Shown here in pieces: positions 21,963-63,744 of a DNA stretch of 64,000 nt. A model generated the notes under the pieces. It was not told where the DNA came from. It ran no database searches and worked only from the letters and a program-made list of their open reading frames with translations. Source of the stretch: Vicinamibacterales bacterium (GTDB lineage Bacteria; Acidobacteriota; Vicinamibacteria; Vicinamibacterales; UBA8438); NCBI GenBank assembly GCA_965207615.1, contig CBDBMZ010000003.1:6463972-6527971 (forward strand), read 5' to 3'. A program made the position numbers and the translations under genes. Within the stretch, counting starts at the first letter, position 1; each line of letters starts with the position of its first letter.

Positions 21963-22045
21963 CAGTCTGCGCCCGTGGAACGGCGCGGACTCCAGGAGGG
22001 TCGGTTGGGCGCCAAGGGGGCCGAGGGCGACGATTGCGGGCCAGG
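21961..22045 (+). repeat. Hairpin-containing intergenic repeat, copy A
   Basis: AGCAGTCTGCGCCCGTGGAACGGCGCGGACTCCAGGAGGGTCGGTTGGGCGCCAAGGGGGCCGAGGGCGACGATTGCGGGCCAGG. It starts at the TAG stop of the preceding gene. Confidence 0.8.
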
Positions 22046-22310: not shown

Positions 22311-23557
22311 ATGCTTCTCGAGCGATGGCGGTGCGCATGGCGGGTCCGGCTGGGGATGCTCTTCGACCGGCGTCGTGCCGACCGAGAGTTGGAGGAGGAG
22401 CTGCGGCACCACGTCGCGCTTGCGACGGAGGCCCGCCGGGCGCGGGGAGTCCCGCCGGCCGAGGCGCGACGGCAGGCGCTGGTGAGCCTCGGGGGTCTCG
22501 AGTCGGCCCGGAACCACGTTCGCGACGCGCGGTTCGCCGCGGCCCTCATGACGAGCTGGCAGGATCTCCGCTTCGCGGCTCGCGGGCTCGTTCGCCGACC
22601 GCTAGCCTCGGCGGTTGCCGTCGGCACGCTGAGCCTCGGCCTCGCGTCGGTGACGGCGCTGTTCGCGGTCGTCGATGCGGTGATTCTCCAGCCGATTGGC
22701 AACGACGACTCCCGACTGGTCCGGATATGGAAGGACGACGTCGAACGGGGCGGCGGGCTCCTGTTTCCGATCCCGATCGTGCGCGGACGCGCCTTCGCGC
22801 GCACCGACACCGCCGATGCGCAGCGCGTGGCGATCGTGAGCGAGAGCGCCGCCGCGCGCTACTGGCCTGGCGAGGAGCCGGTCGGCAAACGGGTCCGCCT
22901 CGGCCCGCGATTCGAGTGGACGACGGTGGTGGGGGTCGCGGCCGACCTGAGGTACCGCGAGCTCACCAGCAACTGGATGACGGTCTACTATCCGGCCGCG
23001 CAGTCGTTCCACTTCCAGCCCGGCAACCTCGCGATTCGCACCGGGCCGCCGCCGTCGACGCTGTTGTCGGCCGTCCGCGGCGCGATTCAGGCCATCGAGC
23101 CGGCGATACCGATGGAGACGCTGACGCCGATGGACGAGCTGCTCGCCGTGGAGCTCGCCCGGCCACGACTCGCGATGCGGATCTCGATCGCCTTCGGACT
23201 GGTGACGCTCGCGCTGATCGCGGTGGGCCTGTTCGGAACGGGTCGTTCGACGCCGGGCAGCGGCGGGTCGAGATGGCGATACGCTCGGCGCTGGGAGCGA
23301 GCCCGCGCGCGCTGCGGCGTCTCGTCGCGGGGCGGGGGCTGCGGATCGCGGCGGCTGGCGTCATCGCGGGCCTCGTGGCGACCGCCTTGGGAACGCGCGC
23401 GCTGGCCGCGGTGCTTTTCGGCGTCGCCCCGCTCGATCCGGTCACGCTGGCGACGGTCTCGGGCGGGCTGGCGCTCCTGGCCGTCGTGGCCAGCTGGCTT
23501 CCCGCCCAGCGGGCGGCGTCCACCGACCCCGCGGAGGCGCTCCGAAGTTGCGAATGA
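22311..23557 (+). CDS. FtsX/MacB-type permease #2 with ADOP-like N-terminus (apparent frameshift at ~23,240)
   Basis: ELEEELRHHVALATEARRARGVPPAEARRQALVSLGG; VAIVSESAAARYWPGEEPVGKRV; TVVGVAADLRY. After the G run the frame of the 22220..23557 ORF continues: SFDAGQRRVEMAIRSALGASPRAL...STDPAEALRSCE*. Confidence 0.65.
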
Positions 23558-23562
23558 GACCC

Positions 23563-26222
23563 ATGAGCCCGTGGCGAGCTGTCGTCGCGTTCGTGTTGCG
23601 CCTGCGGGACCTGTGCGCGCGCCGCCGCCTCGCGCGGGAGGCGGAGCAGGAGATCGAGTTGCACCTCGACCTGCTCGCCGCGCGGTATGTCCGCGCGGGG
23701 AACGCTCCCGCGGAGGCGCGCCGGCTGGCCCGCGCGAAGTTCGGCGGGGTCGCGCAGATTCGCGAGTCGCTCCGGGACCAGGCGGGCTTCCGAGGCTCGA
23801 GTCGTGGGTTCGCGACGTGCGGCACGCGTCGCGGGGACTGCTGAGGGACCCGGGCTTCAGCCTGGTCGTCGTCCTGACCCTGGGGGTCGGGGTGGGCGCG
23901 AACGCGGCGGTCTTCAGCTTCGTCGACGCGGTGCTGCTGCAGCCGCTGCCCTACGTCGAGGCAGGCCGGCTGGCGGCGGTCCAGGAGACCAGTCCTCCCG
24001 CGCCCTTCCTGGTCACGCCGGGCGACTACGTCGACTGGAGGGAGCGCAACGAGGTCTTCGAGACGCTGTCCGGGTACCTGTACAGCGTGGCGGGGCTGAC
24101 CACGCCGACCGGCGACGCCGAGCTGCTGTACACCGTCGCGGTGTCGGCCGACTTCTTTCGGACCCTCCGCGCGCGGCCCCTCCTGGGGCGGACGTTCCTG
24201 CCCGACGAGGACCGGCCGGGCCGCGACGAGGTAGCGGTGATCGGTCACGGCCTCTGGACGCGCCGGTTCGGGGGAGAGCCGGACATCGTCGGGCGCGAGA
24301 TCGCCTTGGACGGGCGCCCGTTCACCGTAATCGGCGTGATGCCGCCGGAGTTCGAGTTTCCCCCCGGGGGCCGCGACGTGTGGACCCCGCTGGTGCTTAC
24401 CGAGGCGGACCGGAACGACCGGCGGAATCACAGCGTGGTGACGGTGGGCCGGCTCCGGGCCGGGGTGACCCTCGAGCGGGCGCGCGCCGCGATGGCGGCG
24501 CTCGGCGACCGCCTCGCGGCGGCCCATCCCCGGACCAACACCGGCCGCGGCGTCGAGGTCGTCGAGCTTCGGCACCAGCAACGCGGGGTGACGGGTCCGT
24601 TTCTCCTCCTCGGCCAGATCGCGGCCGTGCTCGTGCTGCTCGTCGCGTGCGCCAACGTGTCGAACCTGCAGTTGGGCCGCATGACCTCCCGGGCCCGCGA
24701 GATGACGGTCCGCGCCGCGCTGGGCGCCGGGCGATGGCGCATCGGGCGGCTGGTCGCGGTCGAGTCCCTGCTGCTGGCGCTCGCCGGCGGCGGCATCGGC
24801 ATCGGCGTCGCGGCGTGGGGCGTCGGGGTGCTCAAGGACAGCATCTCGCCCGAGATGGCGCGGTGGATCCAGGGCTTCCGCGACATCGGCGTCGACTGGC
24901 CGGTCCTCGCCTTCTCGCTCGCGGTGGCGGCCGTCGCCGGTGTCGTGTTCGGCCTGGCCGCGGCGTCCGCGGCGTGGCGGCCCGCGGTGATGGACGCGCT
25001 CCGGGAAGGGGCCCCGACCGGCACCGCCCGACGGGCTGCGCTACGGCGCGTCCTCGTTGCCGCGGAGGTGGCGCTGGCCGTCGTGATCACCGTCTCGGCG
25101 GGGCAGGCGGTGCAGGGCTTCCGCGCGCTCCACGCGGGCTCGCGGGGCTTCTCTCCGCAGGGCGTCGGGACGATGCTCATCCGGCCGCCGGATGCGCGGG
25201 TCGAGGACTCGCGCCGGGTCATCGAGTTCTACGACGACGTGCTGGCGCGGGCGTCGGCCGTCCCCGGCGTCGAGAGCGCGGGCCTTGTCTCCCAACTGCC
25301 GGCCAGCCTCAGGCACGGTCCGACCGTCGAGCTCCGGATCGAGGGGCGGCCCGAGTCCGCACCCGGCGAGACCCCGCTGGCCGACGTGCTCGTCGCGAGC
25401 GGCGGCTACTTTCGCACGGCGGGCATTCCGCTCCTCGACGGGCGCCCGTTCGACGCGCGGGACGAGGCCGGGGAGGACGGCGGCTTCGCGGTCGTGATCG
25501 GCGAGCGCCTGGCCCGGCGGTACTGGCCTGACGGAAACGCGCTGGGGAAACGGCTGCAGGTGCCCGCCATCGCGGCCGGCGGGGCGTGGGCGAGCGTGGT
25601 CGGTGTCGTGGGAGACGTCCGACAGAACTGGTTCGAGTCCGAGCGCCCTTTCCTGTACCTGTCGGCCGGTCAGGTCGCGAACCGCCAGATGTACCTGACG
25701 GTCCGCGGACGGGGAACCGTGGAGCGCCTGCTGTCCGATACCGCCCTCGCCCTCAGGCGCATGGACCCCGCCCTGCCCATCTTCGAGGGAAGGCCGCTGA
25801 GCGTCGCGGTCGATACGGGGGTGGCGGGGGTTCGGGAGGTGGCCGCCGTCATGGGCGTGTTCGGTGTGCTGGCGCTACTGCTGTCGGCCATCGGTGTCTA
25901 CGGCGTGATGGCGTACTCCGTGGGTCAGCGCGAGCGGGAGCTCGGCATCCGCATGGCGCTGGGCGCCGCGCCCCGCGCAGTGCTCGGCGCGGTCGTGAGG
26001 CAGGGCCTGGGAACGGCGGCCGTCGGCCTCTGCATCGGCGTTCTCGTGGCGATGGCCACCACCCGCCTGTTCGCCGGCCTGCTGTTCGGGACCAGCGCCG
26101 ACAGCGCGGCCGTCACCGCCGTGGTGACGGCGCTGGTCTTCGCGACCGTGCTCGTGGCCTGCTGGCTGCCCGCCCGGCTCGCGGTGCGCGTCGATCCCGT
26201 GCGGGCCCTCCGGGCCGACTAG
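23563..26222 (+). CDS. ADOP-type duplicated FtsX permease #3 (full length; apparent 1-nt deletion at ~23,790)
   Basis: MSPWRAVVAFVLRLRDL...RESLRDQAGF is near-identical to #1. It then shifts into the frame of the 22311..26222 ORF. There are two MacB-like periplasmic domains and two FtsX helix bundles (LLVACANVSNL; GIRMALGAAPRAV); it ends VDPVRALRAD*. Confidence 0.75.
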
Positions 26223-32904: not shown

Positions 32905-34419
32905 CTACGGGAGAAGCCGCAGGAAATCGGCGGCGACCTCCGCGGGGTCGGCGCCCCGCTCGTCGACGGCCAGGTTCATCTGCCGCATGGCGGGGGCGTC
33001 GATGGCGCCGTCGAGCCGGCCGAGGGCGGCCAGCACGTCCGGCGCCCCGCGGGCGAGGCGGGCGCTGACCAGGACCATGGCGTCGTAGGGCGGAATCGCC
33101 CCGCGGTCGTCGTCGAGCAGGGTCAGATCGTACGCGGTGATGCGCCCGTCGGTGGTGAAGGCGCTGATCAGGTCGACCGCGCCCTCGGCCGCCGCCTGGT
33201 ACATCAGGGCCGGGTCCATCGGGCGCCGCTCGCGAAGCTGCAGCCCGTAGGCGTCGCGGATCGCGGTCCACTCCGGCCGCGAGAAGAACTCGTAGTCGCC
33301 GCCCATCGCCAGTTGCGGCGCGACGGGGGTCAGCTCGCTCAGGCGGGTCAGGCCGCGCGCCGCCGCGTCGTCGGCGCGCATGGCCACCGCGTAGGCGTTC
33401 TCGAACCCTAGGGTCGCCGCCACCACGATGCCGTAGGCGTCGCGCAGATGGTCGGCGACCCCCGCGAGCACCGCGGCCCGGTCGGCGCCCGCGGTGTCGC
33501 GGCCCAGCTCGTTGGCCCAGAGGGTGCCGGAGTAGTCGACGTACACGTCGACGTCCCCCGCCGCGAGGGCGTCGAACACCACCATCGACCCGAGCGACTG
33601 CAGCTGGGTCGTCTCGCGCCCGGTCTCCTCCTCGATCAGCCCGCCGATGAGGTTGGCCAGGATGTACTGCTCGGTGAAGGTCTTGGCGCCGATGGCCACC
33701 GGGCGCTCGCCGCGGGGCGCGAGGGCCGCGGCGAGGGTGATGCCGGCGTAGAGATACAGCGCGGCGACGGCCGCCGCGGCCGCCGCCTGGCGCGTCCGGC
33801 CCCCACGGCCCTCCGCCGCGAGGCCCCGCACGAGCCCGTCGAGGACGAGGGCGAGCACCGCGGCGGCGACGCATCCCACCAGCACCGCCGTGTAGTTTCG
33901 GGTCTGCAGGCCGCTGAAGATGTAGTTGCCGAGGCTCGTCGCCCCCACCGGGGTGGAGAGGGTCGCCACCCCCACCGTCCACACCGTGGCGGTGCGCAGC
34001 CCGGCCACGATGACGGGCATGGCGAGGGGCAGCTCGACGCGGCGCAACTGCTGCCACGGGGTCATGCCGACGGCCCGCGCCGCCTCGGTCAGGGCGGGGT
34101 CGACGCCGGCGATGCCGGTGACGGTGTTGCGCAGGATGGGCAGCACGCCGTAGAGCGTGAGGCCGATGAACGCCGGGAGAAAGCCGATGCTCTGCACGCC
34201 CAGTCCCGCCAGAAGCGGCACCATGACCGCGAGCAGCGCGAGGCTCGGCACGGTCTGGATGACCGCGGCCGCCCCCAGTACCGGCCGTTCCAGCCACGCC
34301 ACGCGGGTCACCGCCACCCCCGCCGGCAGGCTCACCGCGGTGCTGCAGAGCAGCGCGAGCAGCGTCAACTGCAGATGTGCGGTCAGGTAGCCGGGCAGCA
34401 GTGCGAGCTGTTCGCTCAT
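32905..34419 (-). CDS. Glycine betaine/choline-type ABC transporter, fused permease plus substrate-binding protein
   Basis: Permease part: IQTVPSLALLAVMVPL, EAARAVGMTPWQQLRRVELPLAMPVIVAGLR. Substrate-binding part: VAIGAKTFTEQYILANL, DVYVDYSGT. ATG at 34419 (MSEQLALLPGYL). Confidence 0.85.
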   Translation of the reverse strand: MSEQLALLPGYLTAHLQLTLLALLCSTAVSLPAGVAVTRVAWLERPVLGAAAVIQTVPSLALLAVMVPLLAGLGVQSIGFLPAFIGLTLYGVLPILRNTVTGIAGVDPALTEAARAVGMTPWQQLRRVELPLAMPVIVAGLRTATVWTVGVATLSTPVGATSLGNYIFSGLQTRNYTAVLVGCVAAAVLALVLDGLVRGLAAEGRGGRTRQAAAAAAVAALYLYAGITLAAALAPRGERPVAIGAKTFTEQYILANLIGGLIEEETGRETTQLQSLGSMVVFDALAAGDVDVYVDYSGTLWANELGRDTAGADRAAVLAGVADHLRDAYGIVVAATLGFENAYAVAMRADDAAARGLTRLSELTPVAPQLAMGGDYEFFSRPEWTAIRDAYGLQLRERRPMDPALMYQAAAEGAVDLISAFTTDGRITAYDLTLLDDDRGAIPPYDAMVLVSARLARGAPDVLAALGRLDGAIDAPAMRQMNLAVDERGADPAEVAADFLRLLP

Positions 34420-34448
34420 GAGTCCGCGTCTCCCGAGCCCGACGCTGG

Positions 34449-34533
34449 GTGTCGGCGCCGTGGAACGGCGCGGACCCCTGGAGGGTTGCTTGGGGCGCCA
34501 AGCGGAGCCGAACGCGACGATTGGCGGGCCAGG
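34449..34533 (+). repeat. Hairpin-containing intergenic repeat, copy B (left arm degenerate)
   Basis: GTGTCGGCGCCGTGGAACGGCGCGGACCCCTGGAGGGTTGCTTGGGGCGCCAAGCGGAGCCGAACGCGACGATTGGCGGGCCAGG, between the ABC ATPase and permease genes. Confidence 0.75.
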
Positions 34534-34594: not shown

Positions 34595-35368
34595 TCACGA
34601 GCCGTCCCCTCCCGAGGCGAGGAGCGAATCGACGAGCCGGGCGTCGCGGCACGGCGTCTCGACGAGCTGGCGCACGTAGTCGTCGGCCGGCGTCCGCATC
34701 AGCGCCGCCGGCGTCGCGACCTGCACGAGCCGGCCGTCCCGCATGACCGCGACGCGGTCGCCCAGCATCAGCGCTTCGACCATGTCGTGGGTGACGAAGA
34801 CCACGGTCACCGAGAGCCGGCGGCGGATGCGCACGAACGACTCCTGCAGCCGCTGCCGGGTCAGCGGGTCGAGGGCCCCGAACGGCTCGTCGAGCAGCAT
34901 CACGCGGGGCCGGGCGGCGAGGGCGCGGGCCACCCCCACGCGTTGCTGCTGGCCGCCCGAGAGCTGGTCCGGCCGCCGGTCGCGGACCGCCGCCGGATCG
35001 AGCTCGACCAGCTCGAGCAGATCGTCGACCCGGCGCCGTACGTCCGCCTCGCTCCAGCCGAGCAGGGTCGGGGTGACGGCCACGTTCCCGGCGACGCTCA
35101 TGTGGGGGAACAGGCCCACCTGCTGGAACGCGTAGCCGATCCGACGGCGCAGCTCGTGGGGCGGCAGCGCGCTCACGTCCGCGCCGTTCACGCGCACGCG
35201 GCCGCCCGACGGCTCGATCAGCCGGTTGATCATCTTGAGGGTCGTCGTCTTGCCGCTCCCCGACCCGCCGAGCACCGCCAGCAGCTCGCCCTCGGCCACC
35301 GACAGCGACACGTCGTCGACGACGGTCTGGTCGCCGTAGCGCTTGGTCAGGTGCTGAAGCTCGATCAT
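34595..35368 (-). CDS. ABC transporter ATP-binding protein (osmoprotectant-type)
   Basis: Walker A GGSGSGKTT, signature LSGGQQQRV, Walker B MLLDEPF. ATG at 35368 (MIELQHLTKRYG). Confidence 0.9.
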   Translation of the reverse strand: MIELQHLTKRYGDQTVVDDVSLSVAEGELLAVLGGSGSGKTTTLKMINRLIEPSGGRVRVNGADVSALPPHELRRRIGYAFQQVGLFPHMSVAGNVAVTPTLLGWSEADVRRRVDDLLELVELDPAAVRDRRPDQLSGGQQQRVGVARALAARPRVMLLDEPFGALDPLTRQRLQESFVRIRRRLSVTVVFVTHDMVEALMLGDRVAVMRDGRLVQVATPAALMRTPADDYVRQLVETPCRDARLVDSLLASGGDGS

Positions 35369-35578
35369 GTTCGCCCGGCGATCAGCGCCGATTCGCCGCC
35401 CTGCCGACCCCGCTACCGTCCGTTCCCTTCGCGACAGCGATGATTGCCCGCCGCCGCCGCCGCGGTTCCGGTTGCCAGCCAAGCAGCCGATCCCGTTCCA
35501 CGACCTCTGTGCCGGTCCTCGGTATCGGCGCCCCCGCTCGATGGCTCCGTGGAGCAACATCCGGGGAGTCTGACCGTA

Positions 35579-53071: not shown

Positions 53072-56000
53072 TCAGAACGGCACGCCGGCCCCCACGTAGA
53101 AGACCCGGCGCCACCGGGGGCCTTCGGCGGGGGCGCCGGGCGTGGCGTCCGGGTCGGGGACCGCGGCAAGCCCGAAGCGAAGCCGCAATGGAGCCTGGTG
53201 GACGAAGGCGAGCACGTCCGTCGTCAGCTCGACGCCGAACGACGTCAGCGGGCGCCGTCCCGCCGGTGCGTCCGGGGCGAAGGCCGCGCCGGCGCCCCAC
53301 GCGTCGCCGGCGTCGACGAAGGCCGAGGCGAACAGGCGGTCGAGGTGCAGGCCCCACGTGCCGGCGCCGCGGTTGACCAGGGCCAGCGGCGCGCGGACCT
53401 CGACCGATGCGGACCACGCACGACGCCCCGCCCGGGCCGCGATGTCGTGGCCCCGGACCGCGAACTCGCCGAGGTCGCCGCCCGCCGAGAAGTACCCCGT
53501 GTGGGTCGCCGGCCCTCGCGCCGCGCCCCCGCTGGCGCGGACCGCGAGCACGGGGGCCGCGAATCCCGGACCCGGCAGCGGCAGGTAGGCCCGGAACCTG
53601 CCGACGAGGTCGTCGGCCGAGCGATCGGCGTCGGTCGCGCCCGCGAGCCCCGCCGGCACGTCGAGATCGCGGCGGGTCCGGGCCCGCAGGTCAATCGCGG
53701 CGCCGCGCGCGTTTCCCAGTTGGAACGCGTGCGGTCGCGCGGAGGAGACGTTCAGCGCGACGGCGAGCTCGCTCGAGGTTGCGCCCGGCCGCGCGAGCCG
53801 GTAGCCGCCGCTCGCCTGGAGGTCGGTGTCGAGCACCTCGCGGTCGCTCCGGACCACCCCGGCCGAGAACGTCAACCCGACGAACGTCCGGTAGCCGCGG
53901 CGTTGGATGCGCACCGACGTCGCCACGCGCCGCCGCCGCTCGAGGACGAAGAACGTCTCCGGCGGGCCCTCCGCCCCCGCCGCGTCGCTCACCCGGACGC
54001 CGTCGTGCCCCCAGCCCTGTGACGCCGCGAAGCCGATCGTCGGGTTTCCCAGTCCCCGATACTCGTACGAGACGTCTCCCGCGCGCCTGCCCGACCTGGA
54101 GAATCTGGCCCCGCCGGCGTAGGCGTGCCTGCCCACCACGTCGAACATCGCGGTACGGCCGCCGAACGCGAAGCCGAGAAGCTCGGTGCGCGGCGTCTCG
54201 ACGTCCCCGACGGTCGTCTTCGCGACCGCCACCGGCGGGCGAATGTCGGGGACCCAGTACGTGGGCCACAGGGTCGAGACCGGCGAGTAGCCCCGCACCG
54301 CGTGGTCGGCGCGGCCCGTCCCGCGTTCGTCGCCGGCGTCGTCGGCCTGCGCCGCGCGGCCCGCGTCCCGCGACGCGGTCGCCTCGTTCTCGGATGCCGG
54401 CGTGTCGTCCTGGAGCGTGCTCGAGGCGTCCTCGGATGCCGGCGCGTCGGCCGGCGGTGTCGACGCGCCGGCTGCGGCCCCGGGCGCGTCGTCCGGTCCC
54501 GGGTTCGCGGCGACATCGGCGGCCGAGGCCGCGGGTGCGTGGTCCCGGGCCGTGTTCGCGGCGGCCGTGGTCGCCGGCGCGTCGTCGGCAGGGGCGCTCG
54601 CCAAGTTGAGGTGGGCGCCGGCGTCGTCGTCGAAGCGTGCGGCCGGCTCGGGCGCGGGCGGGGCGCGGTCGGGCGCGAACGGGACGCGCTCAATCTCCCA
54701 GCCGTCGACGTGGTAGCCCGAGAAGTAGAGCCACTCGCCGGCGGGGTCGACCCGCGGGAACGCCGCCCCCGTCCGCACGTTGGTCAGGAGGCGCGGCGGG
54801 CCGGCGGCGCCGGTGCGGGGGTCGATCTCGACCGCGAGGACGTTGGGGATGCCGGTGCGGTCGGACGACCAGACGAGGTGCCGGCCGTCCGCGCACCACG
54901 CCGGGGCCATGTCGAGGGCCCGGTCGCGGGTCACCGCGTGGACGAGCCGCCCGTCCGCGTCGAGGATGACGACGTCGTGCCGGCCCCCGGCCCAGCGGCT
55001 CGCCGCGATCCAGCGGCCGTCGGGAGACACCGCGGGCCAGGCCCAGTACGTGTCCGCGGCCGGAGCGACGATCTCCTCCAGCGCGCCGTTCCCGAGGTCG
55101 ACCCGCACCAGGCCGTTGGTCCCCCCGCCGTCCATCACCGCGACGGCCCGGCCGCCGTCGGGCTCGGCCGACGGCGACGCGACCCGGGCGCCCTCGGTGA
55201 CGCGCCGCACCGACCCCTCGGCGGTCAGGACGTAGAGGTCGCTGTAGTGACGGTAGCGATCCGTGAACTCGCGCTGCGAGAACACGATCCCGCCGTCCGG
55301 CAGGAAGTCGAACCGCGTGAGGTGGTTCGTTCGCGCCAGCGTCGACGCGTCCCCTCCGGCGGGCGGCACGGCCACGAGCCTCGGGTCGGACCGTCCGTCC
55401 GATCGGACGTAGGCCAGCCGGCCGCCGTCGGGCGAGACCGCGGGATGCAGCGCCTGGCGGGCGCCGCCGGTCAGCGACTCCGGCTCGGTGACGGGGCCGA
55501 ACGCGGCGAGCTCGTCGTCCAGCCGTTCGACCCGGGCGCGCATCTCTTCGCGCCACGTGTCCCACTCGCCCGTCAGCGAGACGTCGTCGAGGACGCGCCG
55601 GGGCAGCCCCCCGTTGCGCGCGACCTCCTCGACGAACCGCGGCATGGCGTCGCGCCCGTGCTTGTCGAGCAGGTACTCGAAGAACAGCGACCCGTAGATG
55701 TAGCGGCGTCCGCCGCCGGGCCACTGGGGAGAGTAGCCCCCGGCCGTGCCGAGCGACTCGAAACGCCCCTCGAGCGCCGCCGTCCGCAGCACCATCTCGT
55801 GATAGGTGCCGCGCACCCGGCCGCCTCGGGTCAGGTCCGACTCGTACCAGGTGGCGAGCCCCTCGATCACCCACCCCGGGACGTTCGTGCCGGGGAAGGC
55901 GAGGATGGACCCGGGCCACGGCAGGCGGCCGAAGAGAGTGCGGAAGAACCGGCCGAACCACCCGGTGTAGTCGAGGTGGAAGACGTGCGCGAGCTCGTGG

Positions 56001-56389
56001 ACGACGAGCTGCTCCAGCCAGTCGTCGAAGTAGCCCAGCGCGAGGTGGTCGGGCGGAGGGCGCGCGTAGAGCACGATGCGGTTCGAGGGCGATACGCGGG
56101 CGTAGCCGTTCGAGACGTCGACGTGGTCGGTCAGGACGATGTCGATGGTTCCCCCCGGGCCCGCGCGGAACCCCGCCGACAGGGCCTCGTGCGCCCGCTC
56201 CGCTACGGCCGCGGTCCTCGCCCCCAGCGCCGCGAGGTGCTCGGGGAAGGTGATGCGGAAGTGCTCGGTCTCGAGGGTCCGCCACGCCTCGTCCGGGGGA
56301 ACTTGGGCCGCTGCGGGCCCCGGCGCCGCCGCGCCCAGGCTCACGATCGCCGCCATCAGGAGGGGACGAGCTCCCGCCAGGCGGGGCAT
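53072..56389 (-). CDS. Large outer-membrane protein: HExxH peptidase-like domain, TolB/PD40-like beta-propeller repeats, low-complexity linker and C-terminal Omp85-like barrel
   Basis: Signal MPRLAGARPLLMAAIVSLGAAAPGPAAAQ. VVHELAHVFHLDY (~55,985-56,002). Repeated PAVSPDGGRLAYV / PAVSPDGRWIAAS / PAWCADGRHLVWSS. Ala/Asp/Pro-rich stretch (~54,290-54,640). Barrel-like C-terminus ending YVGAGVPF. Confidence 0.7.
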   Translation of the reverse strand: MPRLAGARPLLMAAIVSLGAAAPGPAAAQVPPDEAWRTLETEHFRITFPEHLAALGARTAAVAERAHEALSAGFRAGPGGTIDIVLTDHVDVSNGYARVSPSNRIVLYARPPPDHLALGYFDDWLEQLVVHELAHVFHLDYTGWFGRFFRTLFGRLPWPGSILAFPGTNVPGWVIEGLATWYESDLTRGGRVRGTYHEMVLRTAALEGRFESLGTAGGYSPQWPGGGRRYIYGSLFFEYLLDKHGRDAMPRFVEEVARNGGLPRRVLDDVSLTGEWDTWREEMRARVERLDDELAAFGPVTEPESLTGGARQALHPAVSPDGGRLAYVRSDGRSDPRLVAVPPAGGDASTLARTNHLTRFDFLPDGGIVFSQREFTDRYRHYSDLYVLTAEGSVRRVTEGARVASPSAEPDGGRAVAVMDGGGTNGLVRVDLGNGALEEIVAPAADTYWAWPAVSPDGRWIAASRWAGGRHDVVILDADGRLVHAVTRDRALDMAPAWCADGRHLVWSSDRTGIPNVLAVEIDPRTGAAGPPRLLTNVRTGAAFPRVDPAGEWLYFSGYHVDGWEIERVPFAPDRAPPAPEPAARFDDDAGAHLNLASAPADDAPATTAAANTARDHAPAASAADVAANPGPDDAPGAAAGASTPPADAPASEDASSTLQDDTPASENEATASRDAGRAAQADDAGDERGTGRADHAVRGYSPVSTLWPTYWVPDIRPPVAVAKTTVGDVETPRTELLGFAFGGRTAMFDVVGRHAYAGGARFSRSGRRAGDVSYEYRGLGNPTIGFAASQGWGHDGVRVSDAAGAEGPPETFFVLERRRRVATSVRIQRRGYRTFVGLTFSAGVVRSDREVLDTDLQASGGYRLARPGATSSELAVALNVSSARPHAFQLGNARGAAIDLRARTRRDLDVPAGLAGATDADRSADDLVGRFRAYLPLPGPGFAAPVLAVRASGGAARGPATHTGYFSAGGDLGEFAVRGHDIAARAGRRAWSASVEVRAPLALVNRGAGTWGLHLDRLFASAFVDAGDAWGAGAAFAPDAPAGRRPLTSFGVELTTDVLAFVHQAPLRLRFGLAAVPDPDATPGAPAEGPRWRRVFYVGAGVPF

Positions 56390-56578
56390 GGCGGCTCGAT
56401 GCCGCGGCCGACGCGGGTCCTCGTCCGGGCGGTTCTTCGAACCGCGCGGCGCCCCGGGTCGCATGTGCCGACCGTGTCCTTTTTCCGGACGCCCGCTGGA
56501 GAGGACCCTACCTTCGCGAACCGCCAGGCGCCTCGGATCGTCCGCGTCGACAACAGCCATTCCTGAACGGCATTCTCG

Positions 56579-57459: not shown

Positions 57460-57535
57460 TGGGGTGAGTGACGGGGTTTGAACCCGCGACATCCGGAGCC
57501 ACAGTCCGGCGCTCTACCACTGAGCTACACTCACC
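57460..57535 (-). tRNA. tRNA-His (GTG anticodon)
   Basis: The reverse complement GGTGAGTGTAGCTCAGTGGTAGAGCGCCGGACTGTGGCTCCGGATGTCGCGGGTTCAAACCCCGTCACTCACCCCA folds as a cloverleaf by hand. It has the extra 5' G(-1) typical of tRNA-His, anticodon loop CTGTGGC, and an encoded CCA. Confidence 0.9.
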
Positions 57536-57685: not shown

Positions 57686-58939
57686 ATGACCCATCCTCAG
57701 CCGGTTCTCGAGACCACCTGCACCGACGAGGCGCTGCGCGCGGTCCGCGTGCTCGTCGACGCCTACCGGCTCACCGCCGACTCGCGCGACGCCGACCGGA
57801 TTCTGAACGGCATCCTCGACTGCGTGGCCCGGCTCGTCGAGTACGACTCGGCCGCCGTCTACGTGCTGGGCAGCTCGGGCCGCCACGTGCGGCATTTCTG
57901 GTGGCGGGACGATTCGGGCGCCGTGCCCTGCCACGACGGCGCCCTGGAGGAGGGTCGGCCCGTCGCCCGGGCCATCGACTCCCGCGAGCCGGTGCTGCTG
58001 GACGAAAGCATCGATCCGGCGGAGGGGGGGCCGTGCCACCGGTCCGGGCTCGTCGTCCCCCTGGTGGGGCTCCACGGGGTGATGGGCGCCATCGAGCTCC
58101 ACTCGCGGCGCGCGAAGGCCTACGACGCTCGCGCCGTCGAGATGCTGCGGCTGCTCGGCACCCTCATCGCCGGCACCATCGAGCGGTCCCGCATGCAGGA
58201 GGAGGTGCGGGCCAAGCGGCGCATCGACGCCGAGATGCTCGTGGCCCGGCAGGTGATGGAGGACCTCGTCCCGCGCGACATCCCCACCCTCGAGGGGTTC
58301 GACATCGCCGGCGTCAACGAGGCGTCGTTCGAGGTGGGCGGCGACTACTACGAGTTCATCCCGCTGCCGGAGGACCGGTGGGTGATCATCATCGCCGACG
58401 TGGCCGGCAAGGGCATCGCCGCCGCCCTCCAGGTCTCGGCCATCCGGGCCTCGATCTACTCGCTCGTGGGGCGCGAGCTGGCGATCCGCGCGGTCATGCG
58501 CCACGCCAACCGCTTCTTCCACGACTCGGTCGACGCCGGCCGCTACGTCACCCTCTTCTACGCCGTCCTCGACGTGCCGACCCGCCAGCTCATCTACGTC
58601 AACGCCGGCCACCAGCCGCCGCTCCTCGTGCGCCCCGACGGGGCCGCCGACAAGCTGTGGAGCGGCGGGGTCCCCATCGGGATGTTCGAGTCGCCGCGCT
58701 ACTTCGAGGGCGGCGCCCGGCTCCGCCCCGGGGACCTTCTCGCCTTCTACACCGACGGCATCGTCGAATCGGCCAATGCCCACGACGAGGAGTACGGCCA
58801 CGACCGGCTGGCCACGACGATGCACGGGGCGAGAGGGGAGAGCGCGGAGACGATCTGCCGGCGCGTCATGGACGACGTGCACCGGTTCTCCTTCGGCAGC
58901 CCCGACGACCGGACGCTGCTCGTCCTGAAGTCCACCTGA
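57686..58939 (+). CDS. GAF-domain PP2C-type (SpoIIE/RsbU-like) serine phosphatase
   Basis: N-terminal GAF-like region (ILDCVARLVEYDSAAVYVL...GAIELHS). FEVGGDYYEFIPL, IIIADVAGKGIAAAL, YVNAGHQPPLL, AFYTDGIVE. Confidence 0.85.
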   Translation: MTHPQPVLETTCTDEALRAVRVLVDAYRLTADSRDADRILNGILDCVARLVEYDSAAVYVLGSSGRHVRHFWWRDDSGAVPCHDGALEEGRPVARAIDSREPVLLDESIDPAEGGPCHRSGLVVPLVGLHGVMGAIELHSRRAKAYDARAVEMLRLLGTLIAGTIERSRMQEEVRAKRRIDAEMLVARQVMEDLVPRDIPTLEGFDIAGVNEASFEVGGDYYEFIPLPEDRWVIIIADVAGKGIAAALQVSAIRASIYSLVGRELAIRAVMRHANRFFHDSVDAGRYVTLFYAVLDVPTRQLIYVNAGHQPPLLVRPDGAADKLWSGGVPIGMFESPRYFEGGARLRPGDLLAFYTDGIVESANAHDEEYGHDRLATTMHGARGESAETICRRVMDDVHRFSFGSPDDRTLLVLKST

Positions 58940-59106
58940 GGACGGCGTTCCGCCCCCGCCGGCGCCTCCGCGCGGCAAACAGGCCTCACTCCAGAGGGTG
59001 AACTCGGGGATGGACAGGACTTCCCGAATGTACGGCAGGACCGGGCCGACCGGTTTTCGACCGGCCCACCCGGCACGTGTGCGCGAGCCGTACCGTGCGA
59101 TGCGGG

Positions 59107-59175
59107 CCAGGAGTCTGCGCCGCGGAAACGGCGCGGACTCCTGGAGGTAGCCGCGGGCGACGATTGGCGGGCTAG
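59107..59175 (+). repeat. Hairpin-containing intergenic repeat, copy C (internal deletion)
   Basis: CCAGGAGTCTGCGCCGCGGAAACGGCGCGGACTCCTGGAGGTAGCCGCGGGCGACGATTGGCGGGCTAG. Its last bases supply the stop codon (reverse strand) of the DUF3500 gene. Confidence 0.8.
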
Positions 59176-60209
59176 TCCGCGTTGCGCGTGCCGTGGTCGT
59201 ACTGCCGGTAGTGCTCGGCCAGCAGGTCGCGGCCGAAGTCGCCGGCGAAGTCGCGCCACACGCTGTGCACGTGGTTGGCGTTGCCCTGGGTGTTGTCGTA
59301 CTCGATCAGGAACGTCGGGCCCTGGATGCGATAGTAGTGCGGCTCGCCCTGGGCCTCGCCGCCCATCCAGACGAACCGGATGCCGTCGAGCCCGGCGTCA
59401 CGCACCTCGGCCAGCCGCTCGTCGGCGACGGGGCCGGGCTGGGCGGTGGCGTACTCCTCGATGATCGACCACAGGGCCGCTTGCTGGTCGGCGTCGAGGT
59501 CCTTGTGCGTCACTCCGAAGTCCTCGAGCAGGGTGACCCGCTGCTGGGCGCGGGTGAGGATGTCGCTGGGCGCCTCGTCGGAGAGCTTGGCCGCCTTGCG
59601 CTGCTCGTCGTTCAGCGACTTGAGCAGGTCGCGGGCCTGGTCCTCCTCGCTGCCGAGGACCCGCAGGCCCTGCCGCGGCCCGCCGCGCACCTCGGCCGGG
59701 TTCGAGCCGAAGAACTGCGGCGTGGCCGCGATGGCGCTGCCGTCCACGATGGTCCAGTTCTGCGAGATGTGGTGCCCCTCGTAGCGCCAGCCCCACGTGT
59801 TGCCGTCGCCCGGCTCGCCGAAGATCATGAAGAAGTAGAGGTCGGGGTCGCGGATGTCGCGGCCCTCCTGCTCGTACAGGATCTGCTCGAGCTGGCGGAT
59901 GATCTCCGACTTCGTGAACCCTTCCTCGCTCAGGCCCGTGCGCACGAGGTCGAGGGCGGCGGCTCGTTGCGAGCCCGACATCATCTTCAGCGAGACGCCC
60001 TTCCGCTCGCGCGGGATGAAGTGCCAGTCGAAGCGGTCCTCGCCGTCGAAGGGAAACCGCGTCGCGGCCTCCTGCTCGTCGTCGAGCGTGTCGAGGAAGC
60101 GCACCGCGGCTTCCGCCATCGCCGACGCGGGGTCGGCGGGCTGTTGAGAGAGCGTGATCGTACCGAGCAGCACGACGAGGCAGGCGACGTTGAAGATGGT
60201 GCGAGCCAT
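59172..60209 (-). CDS. Secreted DUF3500-family protein
   Basis: Signal MARTIFNVACLVVLLGTITLSQQ. FDWHFIPRERKG, WGWRYEGHHISQNW, PHYYRIQGPTFLIEYDNTQGNANHVHSVWRD. Confidence 0.8.
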   Translation of the reverse strand: MARTIFNVACLVVLLGTITLSQQPADPASAMAEAAVRFLDTLDDEQEAATRFPFDGEDRFDWHFIPRERKGVSLKMMSGSQRAAALDLVRTGLSEEGFTKSEIIRQLEQILYEQEGRDIRDPDLYFFMIFGEPGDGNTWGWRYEGHHISQNWTIVDGSAIAATPQFFGSNPAEVRGGPRQGLRVLGSEEDQARDLLKSLNDEQRKAAKLSDEAPSDILTRAQQRVTLLEDFGVTHKDLDADQQAALWSIIEEYATAQPGPVADERLAEVRDAGLDGIRFVWMGGEAQGEPHYYRIQGPTFLIEYDNTQGNANHVHSVWRDFAGDFGRDLLAEHYRQYDHGTRNAD

Positions 60210-60355
60210 GACCTTCCTTACCCCCTTACGCCGCCCCGCGGTGCCCGAGCACCCCGCGCGCGGCGTGCAAGACCGGATTCCGAGCGAGAGCCGGAGCGTA
60301 CCTCCCGGGGGAGGGCGAGTCAAGATGGTGCGCCGGGGCGGCGGCGGCAGCGGTC

Positions 60356-60470
60356 CAGGAGTCCGCGCCGTAGAACGGCGCCGCCTCCGGAGGAGGCGCA
60401 GACTCCCTGGTGGGCTGTTTGGGCGCCATGCGGAGCCGGAGGCGACGATTGGCGGGCCGGCGAGCGGCGG
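60356..60470 (+). repeat. Hairpin-containing intergenic repeat, copy D (extra palindromic insert)
   Basis: CAGGAGTCCGCGCCGTAGAACGGCG-CCGCCTCCGGAGGAGG-CGCAGACTCCCTGGTGGGCTGTTTGGGCGCCATGCGGAGCCGGAGGCGACGATTGGCGGGCCGG. Confidence 0.8.
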
Positions 60471-60640
60471 CGGACTGCCCCGGCCCGGACCACCGCGCCC
60501 GGAGGCAACCCGGCGACTACTCGGGCGACTGGGCGTGACCGGGCGATCGGCCGGGTACGATCGGGAACGGGCTCCGGTAACGAACGGACCGGGAGACCGG
60601 AGCCGGACATCGTCCGCGAGATCGGCAAGAGGCCTGAAGC

Positions 60641-62029
60641 GTGAACGAGGCGCAGTTGCTCACGGCGGAGCTCACCGCCACCGCCTACGGATCGATCCTG
60701 TTCGCGGCGGGGCTGGCCCTCGTGGTCAGCGGATTGATTTTCCGGCCGAGGGGCACGCTCGAGGTGCCCGCGTTCGGCGCGGCCATACTGCTGCACGGCA
60801 CCCGGGCGCTGGGGGAGATCCCGGCCGTCCGGACCGCGTCGGAGCTGCCCGAGGAGCTGTTCGCGTTCAGCGGCGCGATCTGCTTCTACTTCATCTCGGC
60901 CGCGTCGTACCTCTTCATCGACCAGTACTGGGGGCCGGGCCTCTGGAAGTCACTCCGACGGGTCTGGCAGTTCCACCTCGTTTTCGCCACCGTGGCCGCG
61001 GCGATCGACTTGTACAGCGGCACCCCGGGGGGCTTCATGGACGCCTCGGCCACGCTGGTGGTCGTCTACCGCGTGATCCTGCTCGGGAACATCGTGACGA
61101 GGTCGCTCGAGACCCGCCGGGAGGACATCTACGTGCTCTACGGCATCGACGTCGTCCTCGTCTGCACGGTCCACGACGTTCTCGCCAACGCCGGTGTGCT
61201 GCCCTGGACGCTGGAGGCGAGGCCGATCGGCATCGTGGCCGTGATGGCAGCCCTCGCTTGCTCGATCCTCCTGCGGGCGAGGGCCGACGACCGGCAACTC
61301 GGGACCCTGTCGGCCCAGTTGAGCACCGCCCGGGAGATACAGAAGTCCCTGCTGCCCCCGAAGAGCCTGCACCCCGCCGCGTGCCCGCACGCCGTCCGCT
61401 ACATCCCGATGGACGCGGTCGGCGGAGACCTCTACGACTTCATCCGGATCGACGACGACCGCTTCGCGGTGCTGGTTGCAGACGTCACGGGCCACGGCAT
61501 CCCCGCCGCCCTCCTCGCCAGCATGCTCAAGACCGCCGCCGCGGCGCAGAGCCACGTCGCCGGGGAACCCGGCCGCGTCGTCGAGGAGATCAACCGGCGC
61601 CTCCACGGGCAGCTCGACGGCTACCTGGTGACGCTGGTGTACGCGGTCGTCGACACGCGGGCGCGGCAGCTCGCGCTGAGCAACGCCGGCCACCCCGCGC
61701 CGTTGCTCCGGCGCCGGAGCGAGCTGGCGGCGGCCGAAATCGGGAGCGCCGACGCCGCCATCGGCGTGATCGGGGACGAGTCGTACGCGACGACGCGGGT
61801 CGGACTGGAGCGCGGCGACCGCCTCGTCTTCTACACCGACGGGCTCACCGACGCGGAATCGCCCGACGGAGAACCGTTCTCCGTCGACCGGGCGAGAGAG
61901 CTGCTCGCCGAGGACCGGGAGAGCGACGTCGAGCCGTGGACCGAGGCCCTACTGGAGCGTGTGAGGCGCTGGCGGGGCCGGGCCGAGCTGCAGGACGACC
62001 TGACCGTCGTGGCCCTGGACATCCCCTAG
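60641..62029 (+). CDS. Membrane-bound (multi-TM sensor) PP2C-type SpoIIE/RsbU-like phosphatase
   Basis: About 6-7 N-terminal TM helices. Then AREIQKSLLP, VGGDLYDFIRI, VLVADVTGHGIPAALL, LSNAGHPAPLL, VFYTDGLTD, DDLTVVALDI. GTG start. Confidence 0.85.
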   Translation: MNEAQLLTAELTATAYGSILFAAGLALVVSGLIFRPRGTLEVPAFGAAILLHGTRALGEIPAVRTASELPEELFAFSGAICFYFISAASYLFIDQYWGPGLWKSLRRVWQFHLVFATVAAAIDLYSGTPGGFMDASATLVVVYRVILLGNIVTRSLETRREDIYVLYGIDVVLVCTVHDVLANAGVLPWTLEARPIGIVAVMAALACSILLRARADDRQLGTLSAQLSTAREIQKSLLPPKSLHPAACPHAVRYIPMDAVGGDLYDFIRIDDDRFAVLVADVTGHGIPAALLASMLKTAAAAQSHVAGEPGRVVEEINRRLHGQLDGYLVTLVYAVVDTRARQLALSNAGHPAPLLRRRSELAAAEIGSADAAIGVIGDESYATTRVGLERGDRLVFYTDGLTDAESPDGEPFSVDRARELLAEDRESDVEPWTEALLERVRRWRGRAELQDDLTVVALDIP

Positions 62030-62114
62030 GAGTCTGCGCCGTAGAACGGTGCAGACTGCTAGCAGGGTTGGTTGGGCGCCCGGCGGAGCCGAAGGCGACG
62101 ATGGGCGGGCTAGT
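62029..62114 (+). repeat. Hairpin-containing intergenic repeat, copy E
   Basis: GGAGTCTGCGCCGTAGAACGGTGCAGACTGCTAGCAGGGTTGGTTGGGCGCCCGGCGGAGCCGAAGGCGACGATGGGCGGGCTAG. It starts within the TAG stop of the phosphatase gene. Confidence 0.85.
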
Positions 62115-62286
62115 CCCTGGTGGACTGTTCCGGAGCCGACTTTGCCGCCCTGTCGCCGAGTCGCGCCGGCAAGTGCCGCGAAGACGTCCCGCGGGGTGGG
62201 CAGCCTTCTCGAGGGACGGTCCACCAGCGGCCCGTGGCTGTTCCGCGTGGACTCTCGCCGCGGGTTTCCGGCCGGGCCCGAAACGG

Positions 62287-62661
62287 CTAGGAACCGACCG
62301 CGACGGCGCCCGGCTGATCCAGGGCGTCGTCGAGGGTGGGCCGAATGTCGAGGATGCGGTAGAGGCCGGTGACCCGGAAGACCTCGGAGACGTGCGGGAT
62401 GAGACCGGCGACCCTGAACACCCGCCCCTGGGCCTTGGCGGACCTGGCGCCCAGGATGAACGCGCGCATGCCCGAGGAGGCCACGAACAGCAGGCCGGCG
62501 CAGTTCACGACCACGTTGGAGCCCGCCTCCGTCAGATGCAGGATCGACTTCTCGACCTGATGCGCGTTCGCGGAGTCCAACCGGCCCGCGAGCTCGACGA
62601 CTTGGAACTCCGTCGCCTCGGCCGTGACGCGTCGGGTCGACAACCGGAGAGCCTCGGTCAT
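62287..62661 (-). CDS. STAS-domain anti-sigma-factor antagonist (RsbV/SpoIIAA-like)
   Basis: FQVVELAGRLDSANAHQVEKSIL...VVVNCAGLLFVASSGMRAFI (phosphorylatable Ser context) ...LYRILDI. Confidence 0.85.
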   Translation of the reverse strand: MTEALRLSTRRVTAEATEFQVVELAGRLDSANAHQVEKSILHLTEAGSNVVVNCAGLLFVASSGMRAFILGARSAKAQGRVFRVAGLIPHVSEVFRVTGLYRILDIRPTLDDALDQPGAVAVGS

Positions 62662-63206
62662 TGCACACCATCCCCGGGCGAGTGGGCGCCTTCCGCCGCC
62701 TCTCGCGGCGGCAGGGCCATGACGGAGCGGTCGCGGTCGTAGCGCCGCTCGAACACCACGACGTTCCGATCGCCGTCGCGGCGGTAGCGCATCTCCTGAG
62801 CGAAGGCCTGCACCAGGCAGAGCCCCAACCCCCCGACCGGCACGTCGTCGAGATGGGATCGATCGTCGAAATCGGGCGTCACGAACGAAACCGGATCGAA
62901 GGACTCGCCCGGCCAGTCGAACACGAGCCCGACGCTGTCGCCCGAGAAGGCGACCGAGATCTGGAGCAGCGCGCCGGGGTCCGGCCGGGCATGGCGAACC
63001 ACGTTGGCGACCAGCTCGTCGACGACCACGCTGAGGCCGTAGACGACCGCGCCCGGCGCGTCGTGCCAGCGCCCGACGGTCTCGATCATCGTGATGAGGG
63101 GGCCGATCTCGCCGAGCCGGGCGGGAAACCGAACGGAGAACTGATCGCCGGCCACGGTGGGCGAAACGGGGCTGACACGGTCCGGAACGGCAGGAGTCGT
63201 GTTCAC
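62658..63206 (-). CDS. Anti-sigma regulatory factor, Ser/Thr kinase (RsbW/SpoIIAB-like, HATPase_c_2)
   Basis: LSVVVDELVANVVRHA (N-box), VGGLGLCLVQAFAQEMRY (G-box). ATGA overlap with the STAS gene. GTG start. Confidence 0.8.
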   Translation of the reverse strand: MNTTPAVPDRVSPVSPTVAGDQFSVRFPARLGEIGPLITMIETVGRWHDAPGAVVYGLSVVVDELVANVVRHARPDPGALLQISVAFSGDSVGLVFDWPGESFDPVSFVTPDFDDRSHLDDVPVGGLGLCLVQAFAQEMRYRRDGDRNVVVFERRYDRDRSVMALPPREAAEGAHSPGDGVQ

Positions 63207-63214
63207 GGATACAC

Positions 63215-63302
63215 CTGGCCCGGAGAGCGTCGCCTACGGCTCCGCTCGCCGCCCAACCAACCCTGCCAGGAGTCTGCACCGTTCTACGGCGCAGACTCCT
63301 GG
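63215..63302 (-). repeat. Hairpin-containing intergenic repeat, copy F (inverted orientation)
   Basis: The reverse complement reads CCAGGAGTCTGCGCCGTAGAACGGTGCAGACTCCTGGCAGGGTTGGTTGGGCGGCGAGCGGAGCCGTAGGCGACGCTCTCCGGGCCAG. It begins 9 nt upstream of the RsbW-like start. Confidence 0.8.
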
Positions 63303-63667
63303 TGTCACGGAAACCGACCGGCACGACTGGCCGGCGGCGAACACCGAAACCGCAGTATACGACGGATGCCGCCGGTGACGGCCCCGGGCGGGCAGCGGCG
63401 CTCCGGTCGAAGCGAGCGTCCCCGACGCTCGGCCCGTCGGCGCCGTGACGGCGCCGGCGCGGTTGACGCCAGGCGCGAAGGCCGTGGTACGCTTGCAGTC
63501 GCGTGCGCCGGTCTGCCGTTCGTTCGTCGCGTGACGCCGCCGGCCGGACGGGCCGTTGCCCGTGCTGGTCCAGCCGCGTGGCGAGCACGGGGCCGGGCCG
63601 CGATTTGGCTGGCAGAACCGGCCGGCAGGGTCGAAAGGGTTGCCGTAGGTCGTTTGTTCCAAAGCAC

Positions 63668-63744
63668 GCGCCCGTAGCTCAGCTGGATAGAGCATCGGCC
63701 TTCTAAGCCGAGGGTCGCAGGTTCGAATCCTGCCGGGCGTGCCA
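63668..63744 (+). tRNA. tRNA-Arg (TCT anticodon)
   Basis: GCGCCCGTAGCTCAGCTGGATAGAGCATCGGCCTTCTAAGCCGAGGGTCGCAGGTTCGAATCCTGCCGGGCGTGCCA. Cloverleaf folded by hand, anticodon loop CTTCTAA, CCA encoded. Confidence 0.9.

Follow-up and report, generated by a model that had tools for sequence, protein, structure and literature searches.

The 64,000-nucleotide stretch of Vicinamibacterales DNA analyzed here (the window; positions 6,463,972 to 6,527,971 of contig CBDBMZ010000003.1, GenBank assembly GCA_965207615.1) carries a cluster of partner-switching genes, and between these genes and elsewhere in the window lie six copies of a hairpin-forming intergenic repeat of about 88 nucleotides (nt), which is the subject of this report. 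The genes of the cluster, identified by Pfam except where noted, are as follows:

57686-58939: GAF-SpoIIE gene.
59172-60209, minus strand: DUF3500 gene.
60641-62029: 7TM-SpoIIE/PP2C gene.
62287-62671, minus strand: STAS gene, an open reading frame (ORF) without a Pfam match whose ortholog at the related locus L116 (below) is a STAS gene.
62658-63206, minus strand: HATPase_c_2 (RsbW-like) gene.

A full copy of the repeat is made of a first hairpin (H1) and a second hairpin (H2). The six copies, with their nhmmer E values and with flanking ORFs named by Pfam, are as follows:

21959-22044, plus strand: copy A (E = 5e-17, and by sequence), H1 21959-21996 and H2 21997-22044; the upstream FtsX-type permease ORF stops at the TAG of this copy (21960-21962).
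34445-34532, plus strand: copy B (E = 4e-20), with a degenerate left arm; it lies antisense between two minus-strand ABC-transporter genes, an ATPase (34595-35560) and a permease/OpuAC fusion (32905-34419).
59107-59175, plus strand: copy C (E ~2e-7; fold -44.9 kcal/mol, z = -4.2), with an intact H1 (59107-59144); the 5' half of H2 is deleted, leaving a remnant at 59149-59175 (by module matches), and the minus-strand DUF3500 gene has its stop in the terminal CTAG (CTA, 59172-59174).
60355-60460, plus strand: copy D (E = 2e-14), in the divergent region between the DUF3500 and PP2C genes, with an extra palindrome of ~18 nt at about 60381-60398, GCCGCCTCCGGAGGAGGC, within the 3' arm of H1 (alignment A1).
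62026-62113, plus strand: copy E (E = 8e-23; fold z = -4.4), H1 62026-62062 and H2 62064-62113; it sits immediately 3' of CCCTAG, and the 7TM-PP2C (SpoIIE) gene ends on the TAG at 62027-62029.
63215-63302, minus strand: copy F (E = 2e-22; fold z = -6.4), H1 63302-63266 and H2 63264-63215; 8 nt separate its end from the GTG start (63206) of the downstream RsbW-like HATPase_c_2 gene, and it would belong, in sense orientation, to the 5' leader of the RsbW-STAS operon.

An earlier inspection of the letters alone (the sequence-only reading) had proposed at least six copies, with an internal deletion in C, an extra palindrome in D and a degenerate left arm in B, and had noted that A and E begin at a TAG and that C ends in the CTA of a reverse-strand stop. 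All of these descriptions held, and the copies lie where it had placed them or a few bases away; an nhmmer profile built from four copies recovers all six (E about 3e-7 to 1e-22) and finds no seventh copy in the window. Its further statement that a copy separates every gene from the DUF3500 gene to the RsbW-like gene fails for the STAS and RsbW-like genes, which overlap and have no copy between them. The similarity of the copies to one another is also borne out by formal pattern searches, as follows: the H1 arm CCAGGAGTCTGCGCCG, with at most 3 mismatches, has 10 matches in the window (3.0 ± 1.8 in shuffled sequences), a 32-nt piece of the tail has 3 (0 in shuffles), a degenerate 27-nt H2 pattern has 4 (0.03 in shuffles) and the H1 loop pattern has 6 (0.08 in shuffles). 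The palindrome of copy D was considered as a recurring third module and rejected, since it is found in D alone among the copies.

When one genome per species was scanned with the H2 pattern, at least 114 stretches were returned and, among the matches listed, nearly all are from Vicinamibacterales/Vicinamibacteria metagenome-assembled genomes (MAGs) of many species; a scan of JGI metagenomes gave 108 stretches, 100 of them confirmed by nhmmer. The retrieved DNA (1.52 Mb) contains 446 nhmmer matches, 323 of which have E < 1e-6. Excluding the bait copy of each locus, the density in the retrieved loci is ~1 per 9-10 kb, which equals that of the window, and extrapolation gives hundreds of copies per 6-7 Mb genome. 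The profile searches thus find the repeat at high copy number across many Vicinamibacterales genomes and in soil metagenomes. Viral contigs gave no match, and a lone Actinomadura pattern match (L089), which has no nhmmer match, was dismissed as chance. A full-length copy (E = 4e-17) on a 3.7-kb contig of a MAG labeled 'Gammaproteobacteria' (L011, JAPOYV010000115.1) probably reflects mis-binned Vicinamibacterales DNA, a case in which the repeat could serve as a binning marker. The repeat matches no Rfam family at either gathering or permissive thresholds: at the gathering threshold the whole window yields two tRNA genes only, and at E up to 10 nothing in 58900-63500 overlaps a copy. These tRNA genes (57463-57534, minus strand, and 63668-63741, plus strand; 70.9 and 72.1 bits) flank the partner-switching cluster. 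No description of the family was found in the searchable literature.

H1 is a near-perfect hairpin of 37 nt with a 17-bp stem and the loop AGA within a conserved GTAGAAC, and its edges are CYAG (5') and CTRG (3'). H2 is ~50 nt long and has the 3' terminus CGGGCYAG; its invariant core is CG / GA / GCC-GNA-GGC / GA / CG, with GA-GA as an internal loop, its outer stem pairs UGGUU with GGCYA and includes two nearly invariant U·G pairs, and between outer stem and core lies a variable stem that pairs CGCCAA with UUGGCG. The consensus of 146 distinct full-length copies is CCAGGAGTCTGCGCCGTAGAACGGCGCGGACTCCTGG AGGG TTGGTTGGGCGCCAAGCGGAGCCGCAGGCGACGATTGGCGGGCTAG. The sequence-only reading had described a hairpin followed by a tail; its 16-bp stem is about right (16-17 bp), and the tail is itself the second conserved hairpin. 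H1 and H2 act as modules that occur mostly together (165 sites) and each also solo (H2 alone at 37 sites, H1 alone at 26), and the H2-only units are preceded by CTAG, CCAG or CTGG, which is also the final tetranucleotide of H1.

Both hairpins are recovered by single-sequence folding of copies B, C, D, E and F (z for B -2.5 and for D -1.8; C, E and F above), and the degenerate copy A has z = -0.7. Pairing was then measured in an alignment of 99 copies (A2) that was built blind to structure and holds at most one copy per locus except for four window copies. Standard pairs occupy 92.1% of its paired cells, as against 32-41% when the partners are slid by 1-3 columns; both-sided changes are present at 16 pairs (117 cells), the covariation score is 0.183 as against at most 0.065 for slid partners, and none of 500 shuffles attains any of the structure measures. 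The clearest covarying pair, 64:86, is AU in 40 copies, CG in 27, GC in 17 and GU in 7. Both stems are maintained through compensatory changes. Because the non-Watson-Crick cells are one-sided (606 G·T cells on the written strand and 137 A·C cells, which are G·T on the opposite strand), one strand is probably the folded, selected form, either RNA or single-stranded DNA. Covariation with the 3' arm of H1 shows the left CYAG to be part of the structure. All three element junctions (for example, window 62026-62030, 62058-62062 and 63215-63219) sit in CCWGG-type, Dcm-like motifs, and the CCAGG/CTAGG and CCTGG/CCTAG polymorphisms are, speculatively, the changes expected of 5-methylcytosine deamination.

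Are the copies a conserved part of the partner-switching locus? Exact look-up of the window PP2C protein returned no record, and homologues were used instead. Locus L116, whose PP2C protein is 88% identical to that of the window, matches the window in its five genes and their order, and it has no element copy across 11.4 kb. At the site of copy E it reads CCCCTAG followed directly by CTGGATTAC, without the element; the position of copy F is CCTG, 11 nt ahead of the conserved GTG (an empty site in L116/L117); copy C adjoins a CTAG that is already present in L116, and copy D falls within a stretch that has diverged from L116. Since L116 is without any copy, copies C to F are recent lineage-specific insertions, and the clustering of four copies within 4.2 kb appears to reflect insertion history and not conserved regulatory design. 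The special tie to partner-switching genes suggested by the sequence-only reading is contradicted by this syntenic locus and by the many other copies that lie beside unrelated housekeeping genes, and the repeats around the RsbU/RsbV/RsbW-like genes of the window are accordingly insertions, to be left out of any annotation of conserved regulatory elements of the module. Effects of the window copies on expression are possible, as F could form an 88-nt structured leader before RsbW-STAS and E and C could form strong hairpins at three gene ends.

Two further observations concern this locus. The loci L119/L120, whose PP2C ortholog is 63% identical, carry at 6392-6426 an H1-only hairpin, CCAGGCGTCCGCTCCGTAGAACGGGGCGGACGCC, at the stop position occupied by copy E; it shows compensatory stem changes, and the gene terminates at the loop TAG. 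It is either an independently hit hotspot or an old copy since lost elsewhere. The 172 nt directly after copy E (62114-62286) form a long imperfect hairpin (CCCTGGTGGACTGTTCC...GGGACGGTCCACCAG) that is absent from L116 and ends in the CTAG that provides the STAS gene with its stop. Relatives with ~74% identity are present at L016 2066-2178, where the segment abuts a copy of the main element, and at L029 3898-4004, and the segment probably belongs to a second CTAG-associated small repeat family.

The relation of the copies to genes was measured with gene calls from our own codon-statistics gene caller. Only 8 of 183 copies overlap called genes by more than 25 nt, and among the 158 copies that lie between two called genes the upstream gene is on the same strand in 123 (78%). 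Stop codons in or at a copy are strongly biased: for confidently called genes 64 of 67 are TAG and 3 are TGA, as against a background of 397 TGA, 248 TAG and 20 TAA. In about 37 copies the overlap with the upstream stop is exactly 3-4 nt, the TAG of CTAG being the stop; 13 overlap by 17-18 nt, the stop being the H1-loop TAG; and 13 give a convergent gene its stop by way of the palindromic 3' CTAG. The H1-loop TAG is in frame with the first TAG (CAG GAG TCT GCG CCG TAG), so a change of CTAG to CCAG leaves the gene to end at the H1-loop TAG after 5 extra codons. L026 provides a read-through case, in which the empty ortholog reads ...GGA TAG and the filled site reads ...GGC CGG GAG TCT GCG CCG TAG. 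We infer that the sense bias arises in part because insertion in the sense orientation always keeps a stop and insertion in the reverse orientation does so only with a CTAG 3' end. A consensus scan found neither T-tracts (canonical intrinsic terminators) nor sigma-70 promoters at the copies. REP termini (GTAG) are often the source of TAG stops, and REP stems are reported to contain G·T pairs (PMC3733652); REPs at most 15 nt from a stop stall ribosomes (PMC12306157).

These features could also be those of a host-selected structured RNA (a 3'-UTR (untranslated region) terminator or stabilizer, a small RNA or an attenuator) that regulates the partner-switching genes and is kept in many copies for its usefulness. 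The stems are indeed conserved with compensatory changes, their G·T pairs are almost confined to one strand, the 78% of copies that lie downstream of a same-strand gene include many that begin exactly at its stop, and F is placed, in sense, within the 5' leader of RsbW-STAS. Such a role is nevertheless unlikely in view of the absence of all four copies from syntenic L116, the unrelated genes that flank copies in both orientations, the ~22% of copies that are antisense or in divergent regions (B lies antisense inside an ABC-transporter operon) and the lack of a T-tract or Rfam match, and the arrays with 4-nt overlaps and the TAG-specific junctions (below) are properties of insertion and not of RNA genes. 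The dedicated regulatory RNA entertained by the sequence-only reading does not stand on these grounds, and an RNA role is compatible with the data only as a secondary effect of inserted copies, for which a general 3'-UTR hairpin effect is possible.

The ends of the element are sharp: in 163 copies conservation begins at C-Y-A-G-G-A-G-T-C and halts at C-G-G-G-C-Y-A-G, and the flanks are random. Position 1 of the left tetranucleotide is C in 133 and G in 25 of the 163. Terminal inverted repeats are absent: CYAGGAGTCTGCG at the start and CTRGCCCGCCAATCG, the reverse complement of the end, have only the tetranucleotide in common. Eight pairs of filled and empty orthologous sites, in addition to that of the window, could be compared, and in every one the filled site differs from the empty site by the element and 4 nt. 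The tetranucleotides at the empty sites are CTAG (twice), GTAG (twice), ATAG, CCAG, CCTG, ACGG and CCGA. Among the most closely related pairs, it is the left tetranucleotide that tracks the target, and the right one is the element's own. For example, in L170/L196, whose flanks are 98% identical, ACGG became ACAG...CTAG, in L091/L050 GTAG became GTAG...CGAG, and in L028/L128 GTAG became CTAG...CCGG. These are not target-site duplications, and the junction pattern appears to be that of insertion 3' of a short target by an element with a target-like 3' end, as for IS200/IS605 and REPs.

The same junctions bear on whether the repeat is a classical miniature inverted-repeat transposable element (MITE) moved by an IS630/Tc1-type DDE transposase, with a CTAG target and TA duplication. 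IS630-family elements use CTAG. Most copies have CTAG or CYAG at either end, there is a weak correlation between the Y of the left tetranucleotide and that of the right (TT 26, CC 18, CT 15, TC 8), and the window holds IS630-like ORFs at 2002-2715 and 14551-15942 and a remnant (1948-2572) bounded by CTAGTGGACCGTCG and CGACAGTCCACTAG. On the other hand, terminal inverted repeats are lacking and the element's ends are unlike the IS630-like repeat TAGTGGACCGTCG; the right tetranucleotide is no copy of the target (L170/L196 and L091/L050, above) and one subfamily has a fixed CGAG right end; and the left CYAG is part of the structure, co-varying with the H1 3' arm. We consider an IS630-type MITE quite unlikely and, with no inverted repeats and no duplication, rejected it.

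Adjacent copies on the same strand also bear on insertion. Of 54 such pairs, 45 overlap by exactly 4 nt; the element's 3' end regenerates CYAG, and therefore new copies stack head-to-tail with a 4-nt overlap. In the L058 array the members belong to different subfamilies, which points away from simple duplication and towards recurrent insertion at the 3' CYAG of a copy already in place. Inverted neighbors 250-2000 nt apart number only 13, and they bracket ordinary genes.

A third alternative is that the repeats lie between gene cassettes as sites of site-specific recombination, similar to integron attC or Xer/dif sites. They are folded, imperfectly palindromic and intergenic, four of them separate consecutive genes, and there are tyrosine-recombinase genes in the window (for example, 13035-13820). 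Yet the flanking genes are of mixed orientation, conserved, syntenic and repeat-free in L116, the element has two separate hairpins where attC has one long bulged hairpin, the core pair GTTRRRY / RYYYAAC was not seen by eye, and the copies are hundreds of dispersed single units and head-to-tail arrays. On anatomy and context this explanation was rejected, and we regard it as highly improbable.

The explanation we favor, and think likely to be correct, is that the six repeats are high-copy, non-autonomous mobile elements of Vicinamibacterales, akin to the repetitive extragenic palindromes (REPs) and bacterial interspersed mosaic elements (BIMEs), and probably mobilized as single strands by an HUH/Y1-type enzyme. 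Here the sequence-only proposal of a REP/MITE-type element divides: copy number, sharp ends, filled and empty sites and arrays are REP-like, and the absence of terminal inverted repeats and of a clean duplication speaks against the classical MITE. The family is new and outside Rfam, and of a known kind, that of REP/BIME-like small structured mobile repeats, from which it is set apart by the two-hairpin unit, the CYAG junctions, the targeting of TAG stops and the spare stop in frame. In the mechanism that we propose, the folded top strand would be the active form, and a single-strand HUH/Y1 enzyme (like the REP-associated tyrosine transposases (RAYTs) or class 3 TnpA), encoded once elsewhere in the genome, would move it. 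The place where it sits is shown by the filled and empty sites and the stop-codon counts above: beside one pre-existing tetranucleotide, usually ending in AG and very often the TAG stop of a gene. Inserted sense copies would then be transcribed as stable 3'-UTR or 5'-leader hairpins which, by analogy with E. coli REPs, may protect or terminate transcripts or slow terminating ribosomes.

Several results weigh against this explanation. No cognate transposase was found: phmmer searches with IS608 TnpA and E. coli TnpA-REP (seeds verified against PDB 2A6M and 4ER8, respectively) detected none in the 1.5 Mb of flanking DNA, where the RAYT or IS200/IS605 transposase that the sequence-only reading had proposed to look for did not appear, and a five-sequence Y1 profile had no match among six-frame ORFs of 222 loci and the window. 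In the sampled loci no H1...H2 pair encloses a Y1 ORF; by Pfam ten small copy-bracketed ORFs are HU, HIT, bactofilin, AtpF, PIN and similar, and ORFs between inverted copies are ordinary genes, such as that of an FmdB-like zinc-ribbon protein (from its translation). With one enzyme gene per several hundred copies only ~1-3 such loci would be expected in the sample, so the negative result for the transposase is weak. Copy orientation relative to replication arm (from chromosome coordinates and local GC skew) shows no clear switch, a comparison that is confounded by gene orientation. In two comparisons (L036/L026 and L026/L036) the left tetranucleotide differs from the empty site at 3 of 4 positions, and some arrays possibly grew by duplication, as could be the case for the nearly uniform L029 array. 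Identity is 0.816 within genomes and 0.805 between genomes, and no recent burst is evident, which fits a long-lived, vertically inherited repeat population as for REPINs (inverted REP doublets). Finally, there are departures from the known relatives: the REP/BIME tag is GT[AG]G, whereas the element has C[CT]AG in ~80% of copies and G at position 1 in ~15%, paired into the stem; its clusters are head-to-tail with a shared 4-nt junction and not inverted doublets; and the two ends of IS200/IS605 elements usually resemble each other, whereas H1 and H2 are dissimilar.

Other features of the window are more peripheral. Its mobile-element genes are IS630-like DDE genes and tyrosine recombinases only. 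The IS630-like remnant at 1948-2572 (~620 bp) has an ORF (2002-2715) with a helix-turn-helix and a partial DDE_3 domain and has TA within CTAG at both ends; the transposase gene at 14551-15942 is fuller. A segment duplicated at 10.6-11.5 kb and 13.5-14.4 kb, 79-88% identical and with direct and inverted arms, surrounds the Phage_integrase-family gene at 13035-13820 and suggests paired tyrosine-recombinase genes or a rearranged mobile element. Segment pairs at 2938-3139/5403-5604 and 3459-3554/5601-5697 (86-92% identical, about 2.1-2.5 kb apart) suggest that gene ends and upstream regions were duplicated. Paralogous ABC permease genes of the MacB/FtsX type occupy 20268-26222, where MacB_PCD (20618-21394) and FtsX (21471-21962) are in separate ORFs, a 1303-amino-acid ORF downstream of these has up to three MacB_PCD and two FtsX matches, and an 88% repeat joins 20613-20846 and 23558-23791. 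An imperfect tandem repeat with a period of ~42 nt (54354-54584) lies in a 1162-amino-acid minus-strand ORF (53072-56560). The codon-usage signal of the ~5.6-13 kb region, which holds a 984-amino-acid caspase-domain (Peptidase_C14) ORF (7714-10668) and a PG_binding_1 ORF (6786-7538), is weak relative to the rest of the window, and this region may be acquired DNA.

Vicinamibacterales are abundant in soil and have almost no genetics. At ~1 copy per 10 kb the element takes a notable share of their intergenic space and marks their TAG stops; it can extend or re-terminate reading frames, and it can mislead gene callers, binning and repeat-sensitive assembly. It is also a marker of recent genome change among close lineages and a DNA substrate with which to find and test the enzyme behind the non-GTAG REP-like repeats of Acidobacteria.

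How does the element compare with known systems? Bacterial MITEs (Correia, ERIC, RUP and IS630-derived elements) are like it in size, copy number, intergenic location, effects on neighboring transcripts and a TA- or CTAG-containing junction, and unlike it in having terminal inverted repeats and a faithful target-site duplication. The resemblance to IS200/IS605 ends and to palindrome-associated transposable elements (PATEs) lies in subterminal hairpins that differ between the two ends and in the lack of both inverted repeats and target duplication, and IS200/IS605 elements likewise insert by a short specific target, have a target-like 3' end and fold in a strand-specific manner; they differ in that no full-length parent of the element with tnpA or tnpB was seen in the sampled loci.

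Among described systems the nearest to the proposed mechanism is that of the class 3 TnpAY1 genes, which in Acidobacteria and Planctomycetes have flanking hairpins that contain a GA/GA internal loop, such as CGGAGCCGCGACCGTAAGGGAGCG; these hairpins number ~600 copies in Solibacter usitatus (PMC6006769). Like these hairpins of Acidobacteria, Planctomycetes and Legionella (PMC6006769), the element is hosted by Acidobacteria, is present in high copy number and has a non-GTAG tag, and H2 shares with them the order of GC stem, tandem GA-GA internal loop, 2-3 bp and G(T)NA loop. H2 differs in having an extra outer stem and in being joined to H1. The octamer CGGAGCCG, invariant in H2, is the start of one Solibacter class 3 motif; in class 3 hairpins CnGA is an unpaired 5' foot, whereas in H2 CGGA spans stem and internal loop, and because of this different placement in the fold the octamer is not structurally homologous and is a lead, not a test. 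It is conceivable, though we would not expect it, that the element is a minimal two-hairpin single-strand transposon adapted to stop codons and the mobile partner of the Acidobacteria class 3 HuH/Y1 endonucleases. It would then insert right after xTAG, and the spare in-frame H1-loop TAG and the 3' CTAG would preserve the stop in either orientation. If this is true, Vicinamibacterales are a natural high-copy system for working out class 3 enzyme function, and it becomes testable whether 3'-end formation, in a phylum where canonical terminators are few, is shaped by such elements.

The REPs and BIMEs of Proteobacteria (PMC3733652, PMC6006769) are mobilized by RAYTs (TnpA-REP), and no RAYT was found near any sampled copy of the element; they also consist of one REP or an inverted REPIN doublet, whereas the element joins two different hairpins in 88 nt. 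In other respects the likeness is extensive: both are short, GC-rich intergenic hairpins in hundreds of copies, mostly at gene 3' ends; both have xTAG at the 5' foot, which often gives the TAG stop; both have G·T pairs in their stems and subfamilies with compensatory stem changes; and both form mosaic clusters, have no terminal inverted repeats and persist for long periods across species.

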